Positions 58,043-64,000 of a stretch of 64,000 nt of DNA are shown piece after piece. This DNA comes from an uncultured Actinomycetota bacterium (GTDB taxonomy: Bacteria; Actinomycetota; Actinomycetes; JAFAQI01), in contig CAVYQE010000002.1 of the NCBI GenBank assembly GCA_963770565.1, positions 288,001 through 352,000 of the forward strand. The letters run 5' to 3'. Position numbers and translations under genes: made by a program. The notes beneath the pieces are model-generated. The model had not been told where the DNA came from. It searched no databases and was given only the letters and a program-made list of their open reading frames with translations. Positions within the stretch are counted from its first letter, which is position 1. Each line of letters starts with the position of its first letter.

Positions 58043-59356
58043 CTACTGTTCGGCGGCGCTGGCGAACTCGCGCTTGGGCTCCGCGAACGTGCCCAACGAC
58101 ACGATCTCGCGCCGGAAGAACAACGCCAGCGTCCAGTCGGCGACGACCCGAACCTTACGGTTGAGCGTCGGCATCCGGGACACGTGGTAGGTGCGGTGCA
58201 TGAACCAGGCCGGGAACCCTTTGACCTTGATGCCGTAGACCTCCGCCACGCCGCGGTGCAGGCCGAGGCTCGCGACCGAGCCGGCGTAGGCATGGCGGTA
58301 GTCCCGAAGCGGTTTGCCCCGCAACGACGCCACCAGGTTGTCGCCCAGCTGCTTCGCCTGCCGGACCGCGTGTTGCGCAGTCGGCCCGCAGAGTGCATTC
58401 GGGTCGTCCTTGGTGAGATCCGGTACGGCGGCGCTGTCGCCGGCCGACCAGGCGCCCTCGACCCCTTCGACCCGGAGGTCGGGGCGGCACTTCAGTCGCT
58501 TGGCGCTGTCGAGCGGCAGGTCGGTCCGCTCCAACATCGGGTTGGCCCGGACGCCGGCCGTCCACACGATCGTGTCGCTCTCGAGCGTCGAACCATCGGT
58601 GAGCACCACCCGGCCGCCGATCATCGACTCGACCTTGGTGTTGCGGCGTACCTCGATGCCACGCTTCTCGAGCTGACGGACGGTGTATTCGGCCATGTCC
58701 GGGCTGACCTCGGGCAGGATCCGCCCGGTGGCCTCGACCATCACCCAGGTCATGTCCGGCTCGGTCAGGCCGGGATAGAACCGCAGCGCGTCGCGGGCCA
58801 TGTCCTCGAGCTCGGCGATCGCCTCGATGCCGGCGTAGCCGCCACCGATGAAGACGAAGGTCAGGGCCCGTCTGCGCAGCGCCGCGTCCTCCGTCGACAC
58901 GGCGAGGTCGAGGCGGGACAGCACCTGGTTGCGCAGGTAGATCGCCTCCGCGACGGTGTGGAAGCCGATGCCGTTCTCGGCCAGACCGGGAATCGGAAGC
59001 GTCCGCGCGATCGACCCGGGTGCCAGCACAAGCACGTCATAGGACAGGTCCCGGCCGGCCCCCTCGACCGGCTCGAACCGGGCCGTACGCCGTTCGTGAC
59101 TGAGCGAAGCGATCCGGCCATTGAGGATCTCGCAGCGGGTGAGGACCTTGCGCAGCGGCACGACCAGATGGCGCGGCTCCAAGTTGCCCGCGGCCGATTC
59201 CGGGAGGAACGGCTGGTAGGTCATGTACGACTGCGGGTCGACGATCGTGATCGTGGCCTCACCGCGCCGCAGCCGGCGTTGCAGCCGCAGCGCGGTGTAC
59301 ATGCCCACATAGCCGCCCCCGACGATCAGGATGCGTGGCGGCGACGGATTAGTCAT
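58043..59356 (-). CDS. ndh: Type II NADH dehydrogenase-like FAD oxidoreductase
   Basis: IVGGGYVG, YQPFLPE, IGGGYAGIEAIAEL, WTAGV, AGDSAAVP, PTAQHAVRQ. Confidence 0.88.
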   Translation of the reverse strand: MTNPSPPRILIVGGGYVGMYTALRLQRRLRRGEATITIVDPQSYMTYQPFLPESAAGNLEPRHLVVPLRKVLTRCEILNGRIASLSHERRTARFEPVEGAGRDLSYDVLVLAPGSIARTLPIPGLAENGIGFHTVAEAIYLRNQVLSRLDLAVSTEDAALRRRALTFVFIGGGYAGIEAIAELEDMARDALRFYPGLTEPDMTWVMVEATGRILPEVSPDMAEYTVRQLEKRGIEVRRNTKVESMIGGRVVLTDGSTLESDTIVWTAGVRANPMLERTDLPLDSAKRLKCRPDLRVEGVEGAWSAGDSAAVPDLTKDDPNALCGPTAQHAVRQAKQLGDNLVASLRGKPLRDYRHAYAGSVASLGLHRGVAEVYGIKVKGFPAWFMHRTYHVSRMPTLNRKVRVVADWTLALFFRREIVSLGTFAEPKREFASAAEQ

Positions 59357-59449
59357 GCTCAGTTCATACCCGAACGGTGGATTGCCAATAACGGCGCCCA
59401 GGTGCGTGAAATGGCACAGTAGACAGGTGGATCGTCGACAGGGGTCTCG

Positions 59450-62400
59450 ATGAGCGACGAGCCGGGTCGGATCATCGAGACCGGGCGGCGCACGACCTTC
59501 CGCGATGTCCTCGGGATCCATGAGTTCCGCGCGCTGTATCTCGCCCAGACCCTGAGCGTCGCCGGCGACCAAGTGGCCCGCATTGCAGTCGCGTCGATCG
59601 TGTTCCAGCGCACCCACTCCGCGCTGCTCACCGGCATCAGCTATGCGGTCACCTACCTCCCGTGGCTGATCGGCGGCCCGCTCGGATCGGTGTTCGCCGA
59701 CCGCCATCCGCGCCGGCACGTGATGATCGTCTGCGACACCCTGCGGATCCTGCTGGTGCTGCTGGTCGCGATCCCGGGGATGCCGACCGCACTCCTGCTG
59801 GTGCTGGTCACCATGGTGGCCTTCCTCGAGCCACCGTTCTCAGCGGCTCGGGCCGCCATGGTTCCGGACATCGTTGGCGAGGGCGACGCTTACGTCGCGG
59901 CGGCGACGCTGGGCAACTCGACGAACCAGCTCGCGGTCGTGGTCGGCTTCGCGGTCGGTGGTGCTCTGGTCGCACTCGTCGGCGCCCATGGCGCGCTGGT
60001 GGTCGACGCAGTGACCTTCGCGCTGTCCGCGCTGGTCGCCACCCGGTACGTCAGCCACCGCCCGGCAGCGATGGTCGAGCGCAGCCGCTGGCGCACCGAG
60101 ATCAGCGATGGCGCTCGCGTCGTCTTCCGCGACGCCAAGCTGCGCTGGCTCGTCGTCACGTCCTGGATCGTGGTCGGCACGGTCGTCGTCACCGAGGCGG
60201 TCGCCGTACCGTACGCGCGCTCTAGCGGCCACGGGGCCCTGGCGGCTGGCTTCCTCAGCGCCGCCGCCCCGCTCGGCATCGTCGTGGGCGCGTTGATCAT
60301 GGGCCGGGTCATGCGGCCCGAGACCGCCGAGCGGCTGATGCTGCCCACCGCACTGCTGGCGCCGGCGATTCTTGCCTTGACCGCGCTCAACTTGTCGCTG
60401 CCCGCCACCGGGGCGCTCTGGTGCGTCGCGGGCGCGATGAGCGCGATGACGGTGGTCGCAAACCGGGTCTTCGTGGTCTCGGTCCGGCACGAGCTGCGCG
60501 GCCGGGCGTTCGGAATCGCCGCGGCCGGCATCTCCGGCGCGCAGGGCATCGGCACGCTGATGGCCGGCCTGCTCACCTCGCACGTGGGCGTCACGCACGC
60601 CGTCGCGGACGTCGCACTGCCCGCTTTCGCCCTCATCGTCGTCTTCTCGGTCGGTTCTGCGTCCTTCAGGCAGCGTCAGCTTGGGTCGATATCGGATGTA
60701 TCGCCCCCGGAGGACGAGGACTTTGCCATGCCGGCACTGAAGCGCCGATCCGAGCTACGGGTCTGGACGCTCAACGCCGTGCTCGCAATCGTTGCCTTCG
60801 CAACCGCGCCACTGCTGCGGCACGACCACGCGTACGCCGGCCTGAACCTGCCCGCCTGGTGGGTGCTCTGCCTGTTCGTGCTGGGATTCGCCTTCCCGCT
60901 GCGGTTCGAATACCGCCAGCAGTCCTGGAACATCTACCTCGAGACCGTGCCGTTCGTGCTCGGTCTGCTGTTCCTCCCGCCGCTGATCCTGCTCGCCCTC
61001 CGGACCGGCGCCGTGGTCATCACCTATGCCATCCTCCGGCGGCAACCGGTGATCCGCAGCGCGTTCAACACCACCAGCGCGGCCTGCCACACCCTGGCCG
61101 GGATTTGGATGCTTCGACTGCTGGCACCCGATCACGCCGCTGCTCATCCATCGGTCTGGCCGGCCGTGTTCGCCGCGGTCATCTTCAGCGAGCTGGTATC
61201 CGGTTCCCTGGTCGCCCTGGTGATCTCCACCACGGACACGTCATGGCAGCTCAGGCAGAGCGTCCGGACCGCCATGATCGGCACCGGCGTGGCCACCGCG
61301 ATGGCCTTCCTCGGCCTGGCGATGGCGGCTGCGATCGACTACGACCAGGCGACCGCCTGGGCGATCACGGTCTTCGTGGTGCTCTCGATCGCCGGGCTGC
61401 AGACCTACCAGCGCCTGTCCGAGCGGGCCAACGCACTCGACCGGCTCTACGTGGTGGCCCGCGAGCTGAGCCCGACCGCGACCGGGCCGGCGGACCTGGC
61501 GCCGGCCCTCACCCAGCTACGCCGGATCATCAAGGCCGACTCGCTCGAGCTCGCGGCACCGTCCGGCAACGACGGCGAGTTCGCCACGGTCGTGAGCGTC
61601 TTCGACGACCCGACCAAGGGCGAGGGCACCAGCGTCTCCGAGCGACCGATCGGTGAAGGCTTCGACGCCATGTCGAGCGCCAACGCACCGAGCTCGCACT
61701 GGGCCTGGATCCCGCGACTCGGCCAGCGCCGGGCCACCCACATGCTGTCCACCCCGGTCAAGACCGGCGAACGCGTGCTCGGGCAGCTGACCGTCACGAA
61801 CCGGCCGGGTGAGTCCCAGGCCTTCGAGCGGGCCGACCTGCGGCTGTTGGAAGCGGCCGCCGACCAGATCGCCGCCGCGCTCGAGAAGGGCCGCCTGGTC
61901 GAGAGCCTGCGCCGGGCCGCGACGCTGGACAAGCTGACCGGCCTGGCCAACCTCGAGAGCCTGCGGTCCTTCCTTGACACCACCCTCGACGGCTCGGCCG
62001 GCGGCGTACTCGTCCTGCTCAACATCGACCGCTTCCACGAGGTCAACGACATGCTCGGCCACGACGCCGGCGACAGCGTGCTGGCCGAGGTCGCGCGCCG
62101 GCTCGAGAGCTCGCCCACACACGGCGCCCTCGTCGCGCGAGTCGGCGGCGACCAGTTCGCCCTGGCGATTCCTGGCGCTGCCGGCAGCGAAGTCGCCCGG
62201 CTGGCGGCGATGGCGGTCAAGTCCCGGGTGGACGGCTCGATCCGGTTCGCCGACGTCAGCGCCGACGTGCGGGTCACGATCGGCATCGCGCGCGCGCCCG
62301 ACCACGGCAGCGACGCCGCAACCCTGCTCCGGCGGGCCGAGATGGCGATGACCGCCGCCAAGGGCGGTACGTCGGGCATCGGCGAGTGGGAGCCGGACTA

Positions 62401-63205
62401 CGAGCGCGACGGCAGCCGGCGGCTCCAGTTGCTCGCCGGGCTTCGCACTGCCCTCGGCGACGGCGCGCTACGGGTCGCCTACCAGCCGAAGCTCCGACTG
62501 GGCAGCGGCGAGGTGACCGGCTTCGAGGCGCTCGTGCGGTGGAACCACCCGGAGCTCGGCCCGATCTCGCCGGCCGAGTTCGTCCCGCTCGCCGAAGCGA
62601 CCGGTCTGATCTCGGCACTGACCAGCACGGTGCTGCGGTCGGCGCTGACCACCTGCCGGTCCTGGCACGACGCCGGCAAGCCGGTGGGGATCGCGGTCAA
62701 CATCTCGGCCCGCAGTCTCGACGACTCGGTGCTGGTCGGACAGGTCGCGGCCATGCTGACCGCCAGCGGCCTCGAGCCCCGCTGGCTGACCTTGGAGATC
62801 ACCGAGAGCAGCGTCATGGAAGACCAGTCCCGCAGCGTCGACGTCCTGCGCGAGCTGCGGATGCTCGGCGTCCGGCTCTCGATCGACGACTTCGGCACCG
62901 GCTACTCCTCGCTGCACCAGCTGCGCGGGCTGCCGGTACACGAGGTGAAGATCGACCGAACCTTCGTCGAGACGGTCGACTCGGACGAAGCCGATCGCGC
63001 CGTGGTGCGGGCGGTGGTCGAGCTGTGTGACTCACTCGGCCTGGTCACGGTGGCCGAAGGCGTGGAGAAGGCCGCGCAGGCCTACGCGCTCGAGACCCTC
63101 GGAGTCGCGCAGGTGCAGGGCTACTTCCACGGTCGCCCGATGACCGAGGCGGCGGCGATGGAGTGGCTGCTGCCGCGCCGGGTCGCGTCGTTCGCGACCT
63201 TCTAG
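59450..63205 (+). CDS. MFS transporter fused to membrane sensor / GAF-like / GGDEF (degenerate) / EAL protein
   Basis: About 410 aa MFS (EFRALYLAQTLSVAGDQ, ADRHPRRHVMIVCD, LRGRAFG), then a multi-TM domain (LPAWWVLCLF...ETVPFVLGLLFLPP), DKLTGLAN, GGDQF, FEALVRW, DDFGTGYSSL. Confidence 0.88.
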   Translation: MSDEPGRIIETGRRTTFRDVLGIHEFRALYLAQTLSVAGDQVARIAVASIVFQRTHSALLTGISYAVTYLPWLIGGPLGSVFADRHPRRHVMIVCDTLRILLVLLVAIPGMPTALLLVLVTMVAFLEPPFSAARAAMVPDIVGEGDAYVAAATLGNSTNQLAVVVGFAVGGALVALVGAHGALVVDAVTFALSALVATRYVSHRPAAMVERSRWRTEISDGARVVFRDAKLRWLVVTSWIVVGTVVVTEAVAVPYARSSGHGALAAGFLSAAAPLGIVVGALIMGRVMRPETAERLMLPTALLAPAILALTALNLSLPATGALWCVAGAMSAMTVVANRVFVVSVRHELRGRAFGIAAAGISGAQGIGTLMAGLLTSHVGVTHAVADVALPAFALIVVFSVGSASFRQRQLGSISDVSPPEDEDFAMPALKRRSELRVWTLNAVLAIVAFATAPLLRHDHAYAGLNLPAWWVLCLFVLGFAFPLRFEYRQQSWNIYLETVPFVLGLLFLPPLILLALRTGAVVITYAILRRQPVIRSAFNTTSAACHTLAGIWMLRLLAPDHAAAHPSVWPAVFAAVIFSELVSGSLVALVISTTDTSWQLRQSVRTAMIGTGVATAMAFLGLAMAAAIDYDQATAWAITVFVVLSIAGLQTYQRLSERANALDRLYVVARELSPTATGPADLAPALTQLRRIIKADSLELAAPSGNDGEFATVVSVFDDPTKGEGTSVSERPIGEGFDAMSSANAPSSHWAWIPRLGQRRATHMLSTPVKTGERVLGQLTVTNRPGESQAFERADLRLLEAAADQIAAALEKGRLVESLRRAATLDKLTGLANLESLRSFLDTTLDGSAGGVLVLLNIDRFHEVNDMLGHDAGDSVLAEVARRLESSPTHGALVARVGGDQFALAIPGAAGSEVARLAAMAVKSRVDGSIRFADVSADVRVTIGIARAPDHGSDAATLLRRAEMAMTAAKGGTSGIGEWEPDYERDGSRRLQLLAGLRTALGDGALRVAYQPKLRLGSGEVTGFEALVRWNHPELGPISPAEFVPLAEATGLISALTSTVLRSALTTCRSWHDAGKPVGIAVNISARSLDDSVLVGQVAAMLTASGLEPRWLTLEITESSVMEDQSRSVDVLRELRMLGVRLSIDDFGTGYSSLHQLRGLPVHEVKIDRTFVETVDSDEADRAVVRAVVELCDSLGLVTVAEGVEKAAQAYALETLGVAQVQGYFHGRPMTEAAAMEWLLPRRVASFATF

Positions 63206-63306
63206 ATCTACCAGCGACTTGACTGAGGATGTTGACCGGTCCTGGCCTGCGCGCGGGCTGGTGGCGGCGCACCCAGCTCGACGATCTCGGCGAATCGACC
63301 GGGCCG

Positions 63307-63360
63307 GAAAATAGCGATGGGTTACGACCCGGCGCTGCAGCACCAACTCGTAACCCATCG
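63307..63360 (-). terminator. Intrinsic terminator-like hairpin between the convergent units
   Basis: Perfect 13-bp stem CGATGGGTTACGA (63315-27) / TCGTAACCCATCG (63348-60); CTATTTTC follows on the minus strand. Confidence 0.65.
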
Positions 63361-63424
63361 AACCGACCTGTCGTCACAATGGAGGACACGTCGTATCTGG
63401 TTTTAGCTTAGGAGAGCTCTCGGC

Positions 63425-63451
63425 TCAGCCCCAGCCCTGCGCGTTCTGCAC
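63425..63451 (-). CDS. Candidate micropeptide MQNAQGWG (MTVQNAQGWG if ATG 63457 is used)
   Basis: Minus strand reads GGAGGTG ATGACA GTG CAG AAC GCG CAG GGC TGG GGC TGA: full SD at optimal spacing, all codons G/C-ending, terminator downstream. Confidence 0.55.
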   Translation of the reverse strand: MQNAQGWG

Positions 63452-63719
63452 TGTCATCACCTCCGCCTCACTGGTTCGCTTGTCTTCGCGGTCCAGTGTG
63501 CGCCAGATGGAGCAGTCCCGGTAGGCCAGATGGCGGAATATCTTCGCACCAAATTCGGACATTCGGCTACAGCAGTCCACTAAACGGTCGTTCAATCCGC
63601 GGCAAACGGCTCAAGGTCACTACGCCATCTGCCGAATACCCGTTCGGCCGAGTGGTCTAACCATCGATCGGCCGGATGCAGCAGTCGGCCGACCGACCGA
63701 CCCGAACCCGTGAACTTGC

Positions 63720-64000
63720 CTAGCTGAGGTAACTCACGGCCCGCGCGAACACGGCGTCGAGCATTGGCTCGGTCAGCTTGCCGGTGAAGGTGTTCTGCTG
63801 GCTCGGGTGGTACGAGCCGATCAGCAACAGGTCCCGGTCCGTGCGTACCTGTGCGAGGTGCCCGAACCGCACGCGTGGCGACGGCAGGCCATGTCCGAGC
63901 TCGGCAAGCACCGGCCACAGCGCGTTCCAGGCGAACCCGCCGAGCGCGACGATCGCCTGCAGTGTCGGCGCGAGCAGTGAGAGCTCGCGCACCAGCCACG
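63720..64000 (-). CDS. udgB: Uracil-DNA glycosylase family 5, 3' part
   Basis: IVALGGFAW, SYHPSQQNTFTGKLT. Confidence 0.88.
   Translation of the reverse strand, partial: WLVRELSLLAPTLQAIVALGGFAWNALWPVLAELGHGLPSPRVRFGHLAQVRTDRDLLLIGSYHPSQQNTFTGKLTEPMLDAVFARAVSYLS

Follow-up and report, generated by a model that had tools for sequence, protein, structure and literature searches.

The 64,000-nt stretch analysed here (the window; positions 288,001 to 352,000 of contig CAVYQE010000002.1) comes from the genome of an uncultured Actinomycetota bacterium. Near its end, an open reading frame (ORF) of eight codons lies between udgB and a long convergent gene that fuses a major facilitator superfamily (MFS) transporter to cyclic di-GMP (c-di-GMP) signalling domains. 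The fusion gene stops at 63205 and udgB at 63720-63722, which leaves 514 bp between them. The 3' part of udgB, encoding a family-5 uracil-DNA glycosylase (Pfam UDG), occupies 63720-64000 on the minus strand, and the gene continues past the window end. On the same strand, the micro-ORF reads GTG CAG AAC GCG CAG GGC TGG GGC TGA (63425-63451) and encodes MQNAQGWG; orthologous ORFs occur in relatives. A Shine-Dalgarno (SD) sequence, GGAGGTG (63458-63464, minus strand), precedes it with a 6-nt spacer to the start codon. Folding and covariation defined a terminator hairpin at 63315-63360 (minus strand), in which a 1x1 mismatch separates a 13-bp outer stem from a 7-bp inner stem capped by a 4-nt loop. 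The outer arms (63360-63348 and 63327-63315) form a 13-bp inverted repeat. A CTATTTT tail (63308-63314, minus strand) follows on the 3' side of the hairpin. As this U-tract exists only on the micro-ORF strand, the terminator is part of the micro-ORF unit. A first-pass annotation of the window had the gap, the SD, the spacer and the ORF right. It had also placed a 13-bp hairpin with a T-tract directly after the ORF; hairpin and tract are present, but the hairpin lies 64 nt past the stop codon and extends beyond 13 bp.

The intergenic DNA is single-copy in the source genome (G000; a 4.43-Mb assembly of 11 contigs). A covariance-model scan against Rfam gave no match within 63206-63719 at E <= 1, and the scan of 62900-64000 at the same threshold returned only a chance miRNA match inside the EAL-encoding gene. 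A simple consensus scan for promoters and terminators found nothing; its loop limit misses this hairpin.

Conservation and coding signature of the micro-ORF

Orthologous loci were searched with a script that looked for an SD, a start codon 8-19 nt after the first SD base, 4-25 codons and a Trp among the last three residues, within the 500 nt after the udgB stop codon. udgB was found in 31 of the 36 genomes of the source family (f1), and 25 loci had the 200 nt or more of downstream DNA that made them assessable. The loci dropped were those of G050 (84 nt) and of G006, G046, G047 and the second G003 contig (1-2 nt each), and G042 was given no locus. An SD followed by such an ORF on the udgB strand was present at 24 of the 25 loci, against 0/25 in the reverse-complement control and a mean of 0.1/25 (maximum 2) in 200 dinucleotide-preserving shuffles. 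The sole miss was G014. The conservation of the micro-ORF is far above chance. The orthologous ORFs have 6-9 codons with Trp at or near the end, and the micro-ORF was kept in all four other genomes of the source genus and in the metagenome contig L036. udgB lay upstream on the same strand at every locus examined, and every locus had an SD of the GGAGGTG or GGGGGTG type at similar spacing and a strong hairpin 3' of the ORF.

A strict SD-ORF pattern, applied across the order (38 genomes), matched 10 genomes with one copy each, always at this locus, and the backward-pattern control gave no match. It added two genomes, G041 (MQKGWQWG) and G018 (MQKGHGWG, with His as CAT), and the family total was 27 of 36 genomes, G003 counted. 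Among the remaining nine, G014 has an intact locus without the ORF, udgB abuts the end of a contig in five, and three (completeness 53-68%) gave no udgB match. The micro-ORF was also carried by G026, from a sister family in the same order, and by G058, the only genome of another order. In G058, which encodes MNGGWGWP, a hairpin of the same conserved type and then T7 come after the ORF. Between udgB and the fusion gene of G026 stand four identical 84-bp units in tandem (L139:2030-2325, on G026:C4), each with GGGAGG and ATG CGT AAC GGT CAC ATC TGG GCC TGA (MRNGHIWA); Tandem Repeats Finder reported a period of 84, 3.5 copies and 100% matches. To our knowledge, no micro-gene this small is tandemly amplified at any other bacterial locus. 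The four copies fit selection for product dosage and are hard to square with a single cis-acting leader. Overall, the ORF was found in L036 and in 29 genomes, which represent three families and two orders, with 28 distinct peptides; these genomes are relatives, not independent samples.

In 401 genomes sampled from the class, the strict pattern gave six matches in five genomes outside the family. Four of them end in TGG instead of a stop codon, one is out of frame and one, in G278, is in frame. The class-wide backward-pattern control gave about 11 matches, which puts the outside-family matches at chance level; the pattern is too strict to detect G026 or G058. The in-frame match (G278:C3:82900-82940, L093) reads GTG..MQFRRRWF..TAG and is probably a chance match too. 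A metagenome scan with the hairpin pattern found nine loci, five of them chance matches in coding DNA. The class-level tallies include genomes flagged as unpublished, and no specific claim rests on those.

The peptide varied considerably around a fixed Trp. G000 and G003 share MQNAQGWG and G001 has MQSGQGWG, all with GTG starts and TGA stops. The ATG-started peptides include MQASNGWS in G002 (stop TAG), MQEGAGWE in G004 (TAA) and MQSSHGWS in L036 (TGA). The family further comprises MQATVAWG, MQTGHSWE, MQAGHSWE, MQKAVHWA, MQFGHEWG, MQKSNVGWH, MQRHGTWGG and MTGHDW, together with MQYGNVGWG, MQYGNAGWG, MAKGHTWS, MAKGNAWG, MQRGHEW and MQMSTATWG. Two genomes encode MTQIVRWG in ORFs that are identical except for the Thr codon, ACA versus ACG, and four longer forms are hydrophobic (MGLLALVGAILLTIGWG, MIDFLLALLGHGWEG, MQLLLGLLALIQTVAWG and MQALISVVAIVLHTIGWG). 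The consensus is M-Q-x-(G)-[H/N/Q]-x-W-[G/S/E/A]-stop, with Trp invariant.

These variants carry a coding signature, because the frame, start and stop are kept while their types vary. Both ATG and GTG starts occur, and TGA, TAG and TAA stops are all used. Length differences are whole codons (6, 7, 8 or 9), and codons vary synonymously for the Gly after Trp (GGC/GGT/GGA), for His (CAC/CAT) and for Thr (ACA/ACG). Judged by this comparative signature, the eight-codon ORF is probably a real, undescribed micro-gene. The first-pass annotation had proposed a self-contained unit, which a lack of comparable micro-ORFs near homologous genes would have refuted. That proposal held: comparable W-x-stop ORFs stood at 29 homologous genome loci, and scanning the flanks of homologues for an SD and a micro-ORF returned a conserved peptide with synonymous codon variation.

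The source genome also has an in-frame ATG abutting the SD (ATG ACA GTG, 63452-63457), which is AGG in G003 and AGC in G001. Since this ATG is not conserved, the GTG at 63451 is the likely start.

In the source genome only, a longer ORF (63425-63595, minus strand) runs in frame into the eight codons and ends with them; it has 56 aa from a TTG or 45 aa from an ATG at 63562 and was judged non-coding upstream of 63451. The frame is open in G000, and G003 matches aa 1-40 of it at 68% identity. In G003 and G001, however, a 1-nt deletion upstream of the SD cuts the upstream frame off from the eight codons, and it stops at a TGA inside GGAGGTGA. Relative to the upstream ATG, L036 reads the conserved DNA block in another frame, and other genera have no long frame. 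The upstream blocks are conserved without synonymous-type variation. This, together with the frame breaks, indicated that the conservation of the upstream part is at the level of DNA or RNA and not of protein. Neither the 56-aa nor the 45-aa ORF matched a Pfam or NCBIfam family (best match DUF1583, E = 0.039), and a protein search with the long ORF in relatives gave genus-level matches only, with the frame broken.

The convergent fusion gene and the neighbour that the peptide follows

The fusion gene (59450-63205, plus strand) encodes 1251 aa and was characterised by Pfam, NCBIfam, hydropathy and motif checks. Its N-terminal MFS part (aa 24-394, about 12 transmembrane (TM) segments) scored 77.5 bits for MFS_1 (cut-off 33.4) and 53 bits for MFS_3, the 'transmembrane secretion effector' family (cut-off 27). 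The NCBIfam equivalogs Tap and EntS were far below their cut-offs, and thus no specific substrate class was assigned to it. About six further TM segments (aa 438-652) follow, and then GAF (aa 724-812), GGDEF (aa 824-971) and EAL (aa 998-1230; Pfam E = 7.6e-70) domains. The GGDEF motif is degenerate: it reads GGDQF in G000 (window 62260-62275, aa ~898-902) and in 9 of 11 tested orthologues, and GGDKF in G058, and is not the GG(D/E)EF of an active cyclase. The consequence of the E-to-Q change is taken here from general knowledge. Intact EAL and DDFGTG motifs occur in G000 and 10 of 11 tested orthologues, with ELL in G014, and EGVE, QGY and KID are present in G000, the one genome in which they were checked. 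Because the GGDEF motif is degenerate and EAL intact, the protein is predicted to be a c-di-GMP phosphodiesterase and not a cyclase/phosphodiesterase pair, with a GGDEF domain that is probably regulatory rather than catalytic. The first-pass annotation had joined an MFS, a multi-TM region and c-di-GMP domains in one chain, which was confirmed, but it had overlooked the GAF domain and the degenerate state of the GGDEF motif.

The C-terminal ~820 aa match the TM-GAF-GGDEF-EAL enzymes that are widespread in Actinomycetes. The present protein differs from that type in the 12-TM MFS fused in front and in the GGDQF or GGDKF motif. A search with aa 431-830 found homologues in 123 of the 401 sampled class genomes, mostly frames of ~850-900 aa without an MFS, and frames of ~1250-1265 aa occurred in this sample only in family f1, G026 and G058. 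The full-length fusion gene is convergent with the short ORF in at least 14 family genomes, plus G026 and G058.

A few genomes have lost parts of the fusion gene, and these indicate which neighbour the peptide follows. Two genomes of genus g6, G009 and G045, have a stand-alone MFS orthologue only (G009: 446 aa, 55% identity to aa 7-405; G045: aa 13-401 at 54%), and both keep the eight-residue ORF in convergent orientation. G014 retains only the GGDEF-EAL part (467 aa), which overlaps udgB by 4 nt, and has no micro-ORF; no MFS orthologue was found anywhere in its assembly (best 29% identity; completeness 91%). The state of G014 required two separate deletions, one at each end of the fusion gene. 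Neither part is present in G044, G048, G051 and G019 (best MFS 26-30% identity), where the ORF encodes 15-18 aa, is hydrophobic and ends in GWG or GWEG. The short polar peptide thus tracks the MFS, and not the c-di-GMP domains or udgB alone, an association that rests on two or three independent events. Since MFS-only genomes keep the peptide, the c-di-GMP half of the gene is, on this comparison, dispensable for peptide retention.

The block of ndh, the divergent fusion gene, the convergent micro-ORF and udgB is kept in genera g1, g2, g3, g5, g7, g9, g10, g12 and g13. G026 and G058 likewise have udgB and then the convergent fusion gene. The next gene after the micro-ORF is convergent except in G044, G048, G051 and G019, the four g6 genomes where ndh comes next on the same strand, and in G001, which has an inserted gene. 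This extra gene (L028:461-1363, minus strand) is on the same strand as the micro-ORF, some 140 nt past the hairpin and before the fusion gene, and encodes a 300-aa NAD_binding_2/DUF1932 protein. In G021 (L109:3125-6891) the fusion gene appears fragmented into tblastn pieces in several frames, reflecting a pseudogene or an assembly error, and MTQIVRWG is intact. Beyond udgB lie genes for DUF6855, DUF1275 and DUF4331 proteins, an NHL protein, Ppx/GppA, DivIC and enolase. Pfam scans found no P450, radical-SAM or ThiF-like gene within ~8-10 kb on either side in G000, G026 and G058, nor beside the fusion gene elsewhere. The longest frame of ndh, which encodes NDH-2 (58043-59719, minus strand), overlaps the fusion-gene start (59450, plus strand), and its orthologues have ~434-442 aa. 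The true ndh start is probably near 59360, leaving a divergent promoter region of ~90 bp.

Terminator and upstream DNA blocks

The hairpin had a predicted free energy of -35.6 kcal/mol (z = -6.4), and none of 200 shuffles folded as well. In an alignment of 16 sequences from ten genera (A1; hairpin columns 274-314), 96.1% of the cells were paired and 10 of 15 pairs showed compensatory changes. None of 500 shuffles reached the observed pairing values, and controls slid by 1-3 columns paired only 38-49% of cells. The hairpin was also nearly identical in sequence across six genera. Genus g6 and G026 have unrelated hairpins, and the distance from stop codon to hairpin ranged from ~14 to 64 nt across loci. 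The 1x1 mismatch of the stem, a G facing a G with GAGUC on each arm, was kept across genera and in G058, as was an apical stem-loop that is nearly invariant; this sequence conservation exceeds the need of termination alone.

Several blocks upstream of the SD stood out in the alignment, all on the minus strand. The one nearest the ORF is CACACT (63495-63500), a candidate -10 element of the form CAnnnT, which appears as CACACT, CAACAT, CACCAT or CAGACT across genera. Two direct repeats of CCATCTGGC, 23 bp apart (63502-63533), are candidate regulator sites; other genera have two to three copies of the repeat as TACTCCAAAyGGCCTAGCG. CCATCTGGC occurs only once elsewhere in the window, which gives no hint of a regulon. 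The most conserved block, AATGTCCGAAT (63553-63563), consists of invariant columns and is a candidate promoter element or an arm of a udgB terminator; other genera carry TGTCCGAAT followed by a T-run at this position. Further upstream lies the conserved block CTTGAGCCG (63607-63615; CTTGAG in most genera). The promoter may be TTGTCA-N17-TGTCCGAAT or may use the CAnnnT block. RNAalifold on the 16 sequences supported the terminator and a 4-bp helix and no other structure. Because no RNA structure is supported there, the upstream blocks look like promoter and regulator signals acting at the DNA level.

In genus g6 (L054-L059, L062), the upstream blocks of other genera are replaced by a conserved (T)TATCCACA(G) within the first ~30 nt after the udgB stop, which we take to resemble the DnaA-box consensus.

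Interpretation of the micro-gene

Conservation extends to the ORF, its SD and its terminator; the reading frame is preserved, and the peptide occurs together with an MFS orthologue. We tentatively favour the reading that a free micropeptide is made from a mini transcription unit like that of mccA and works with the MFS module, to which we give a probability of roughly 40%. The unit would comprise a regulated promoter region, the strong SD, eight codons and the intrinsic terminator. Genuine translation would release the octapeptide as the active product, with the MFS module of the convergent gene as its partner, most likely with the peptide as cargo or ligand. As the MFS is fused to the six-TM/GAF/degenerate-GGDEF/EAL phosphodiesterase in most genomes, peptide traffic could couple to c-di-GMP breakdown; export of the peptide followed by its sensing would be a speculative further step.

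The anatomy is what suggests such a device, as a strong SD, very few codons and a dedicated terminator are also the parts of mccA. Microcin C loci encode the adenylyltransferase MccB and the MFS exporter MccC. The locus studied here resembles them in a peptide of fewer than 10 residues, its own SD, a terminator expected to leave a short transcript, and an MFS gene nearby. The seven-codon mccA ORF and its intrinsic terminator yield a very abundant, stable short mRNA that is stabilised by the ribosome, as the available text of PMC4231749 describes. Precursors of the mccA type are conserved in length and not in sequence, according to the accessible part of PMC6495379. The differences are nevertheless substantial. 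None of the 28 peptides here ends in Asn, the residue adenylated in microcin C, and the invariant position is Trp and not the C-terminal residue. No MccB/ThiF-like enzyme was adjacent in Pfam scans of the neighbours. The MFS gene here is convergent, not co-transcribed, and fused to a c-di-GMP phosphodiesterase.

Several observations weigh against a free peptide that acts through the MFS. Residues 3-6 are highly variable, which is unusual for a specific ligand, and an unprotected octapeptide may be short-lived in the cytoplasm. By eye, pairing of the Trp codon and the following bases with those just past the stop codon is possible in about 15 of 24 loci, so part of the TGG-G conservation may act at the RNA level. 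Two or three independent losses in genomes that are related to one another underlie the MFS link. udgB, too, is a constant neighbour, though udgB of G014 lacks the ORF. Eight distant stand-alone MFS homologues from other families (44-46% identity) had no micro-ORF or udgB within 1.5 kb, and the second MFS paralogue of G058 had no micro-ORF. In sequencing data, 20 runs matched, each with fewer than half of the sampled words (maximum 0.48). Contigs from X20 (RNA) and from X1, X4 and X8 (DNA) leave 63415-63619 uncovered. One 231-nt contig of X20 matches only the hairpin at 63315-63360, with 3 mismatches (a relative's), and another lies on the EAL gene; assembled contigs of this kind show neither strand nor transcription.

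A cis-acting role of the ORF is possible but unlikely. Here translation, perhaps with a Trp- or drug-dependent pause at W-x-stop, would control the terminator or the stability of the transcript, and read-through would run antisense into the MFS-phosphodiesterase gene or, in genus g6, into ndh. Leader and arrest peptides of this kind include trpL, the ermCL or mef leader, and TnaC. The locus shares with such attenuators a short ORF with an SD, a terminator behind it and a Trp codon, and the conserved end of the peptide adjoins the stop codon, where arrest peptides such as TnaC act. A small, weak hairpin tends to enclose the stop codon (63425-63440 in the window, and its orthologues), with a mean z of -1.0 against mononucleotide shuffles and 8 of 24 loci below -1.5, and four g6 genomes have ndh co-oriented downstream. 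Ribosome-controlled termination is documented for mccA in the available text of PMC4231749. Against this role, most loci have no co-oriented gene past the terminator, the spacing between stop codon and hairpin varies more than fourfold, and RNAalifold on the 16 sequences gave the terminator and a 4-bp helix but no clear antiterminator. The four tandem copies in G026 would make no sense for a single attenuator. The ORF also follows the MFS in G009, where the convergent 3' end differs in sequence, which argues against a sequence-specific antisense effect.

The strong conservation of the hairpin raised a further alternative, that the effector is a small RNA formed by the hairpin and the 5' blocks, with the ORF translated incidentally or for RNA stability, as in a dual-function small RNA. 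The hairpin is kept in both sequence and pairing over at least six genera and G058, with its apical loop and mismatch, and its sequence complements the 3' end of the convergent mRNA. In addition, there are several invariant upstream blocks that show no synonymous-type variation. We nonetheless consider a small RNA rather unlikely. The locus matches no Rfam family, and the 5' blocks have no supported structure. Genus g6 and G026 keep the ORF despite their unrelated hairpins. A pure RNA would not need the frame, start, stop and SD that are kept everywhere.

The peptide could also be a minimal precursor of a ribosomally synthesised and post-translationally modified peptide (RiPP), altered by an enzyme encoded elsewhere, for example through a His-x-Trp or other aromatic cross-link, and exported by the MFS. 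RiPP loci often hold precursor genes in tandem, and G026 has its four tandem units. Of the 28 peptides, 9 contain H-x-W, and others have W-x-W or Y..W. The closest parallel is the biarylitides, whose 18-bp bytA gene encodes a five-residue precursor in which a P450 such as BytO cross-links His, Tyr and Trp, according to the available text of PMC13417212. Like bytA, the present ORF is an actinobacterial micro-gene below annotation cut-offs, and its H-x-W is likewise an aromatic i/i+2 pair. The peptides here have 6-9 aa (or 15-18), however, and not the five of M-x-Ar-x-Ar, and 19 of the 28 lack H-x-W, so the pair is not universal. One more residue follows the Trp in seven of the nine H-x-W peptides, while MTGHDW and MQRGHEW end at Trp; the pair is therefore usually not C-terminal, unlike MxYxH. 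The neighbourhoods in G000, G026 and G058 and at the family loci held no P450 gene, and the radical-SAM and ThiF-like genes searched for with it were equally absent. Overall, a RiPP precursor appears improbable.

That the real gene is the 45- or 56-aa ORF, with the eight-codon reading as an artefact, or that the ORF is a chance one throughout, is very improbable: the long ORF was rejected for its frame break in G003 and G001, its lack of any family match and its absence from other genera, and 24 of 25 loci against the controls exclude a chance ORF.

The free octapeptide could, in a doubtful extension of the favoured reading, be a cell-cell signal of soil actinobacteria. The unmodified peptide would be pumped out by, and read through, an MFS 'transceptor' fused to the c-di-GMP phosphodiesterase, so that peptide quorum sensing would be wired to c-di-GMP turnover with neither a kinase nor an RRNPP receptor in between. 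Where the transporter was lost, the peptide would have gained a membrane-inserting hydrophobic extension instead. Gram-positive pheromones (Phr, SHP, ComS/XIP, AIP) are cut from precursors of 17-60 aa that carry export or processing signals, and act through RRNPP regulators or histidine kinases. The likeness to them lies in a small Trp-containing ribosomal peptide beside a membrane protein that could move or sense it. The ORF here has only eight codons, and no RRNPP-type regulator or histidine kinase was among the neighbours. The parallel with known Gram-positive peptide signals drawn by the first-pass annotation was therefore not supported, as neither a longer precursor nor an adjacent dedicated receptor is seen. 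Its idea of a peptide wired to the MFS/c-di-GMP protein fared better in part: co-occurrence and co-loss give some support to the MFS link, but the c-di-GMP half proved dispensable.

In the openly accessible literature we found no description of MFS-GGDEF-EAL fusions in Actinobacteria or of octapeptide and small-ORF signalling of this kind; most subscription journals were outside this search. Genes this small escape annotation, and few are established, examples being mccA, bytA and leader peptides. At least three families of uncultured Actinomycetes conserve the present one, which has a clear comparative signature of translation and a specific genomic partner. Even as an attenuator or a dual-function small RNA, it would still be an undescribed conserved regulatory unit. 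The unit may be a stand-alone micro-peptide gene beside an MFS, and it may be categorically new if the peptide-to-c-di-GMP link is real. If the peptide is indeed cargo or ligand of the fusion protein, it would be a rare functional peptide with no need for processing, and these bacteria would have a new route by which an extracellular or metabolic cue enters c-di-GMP signalling.

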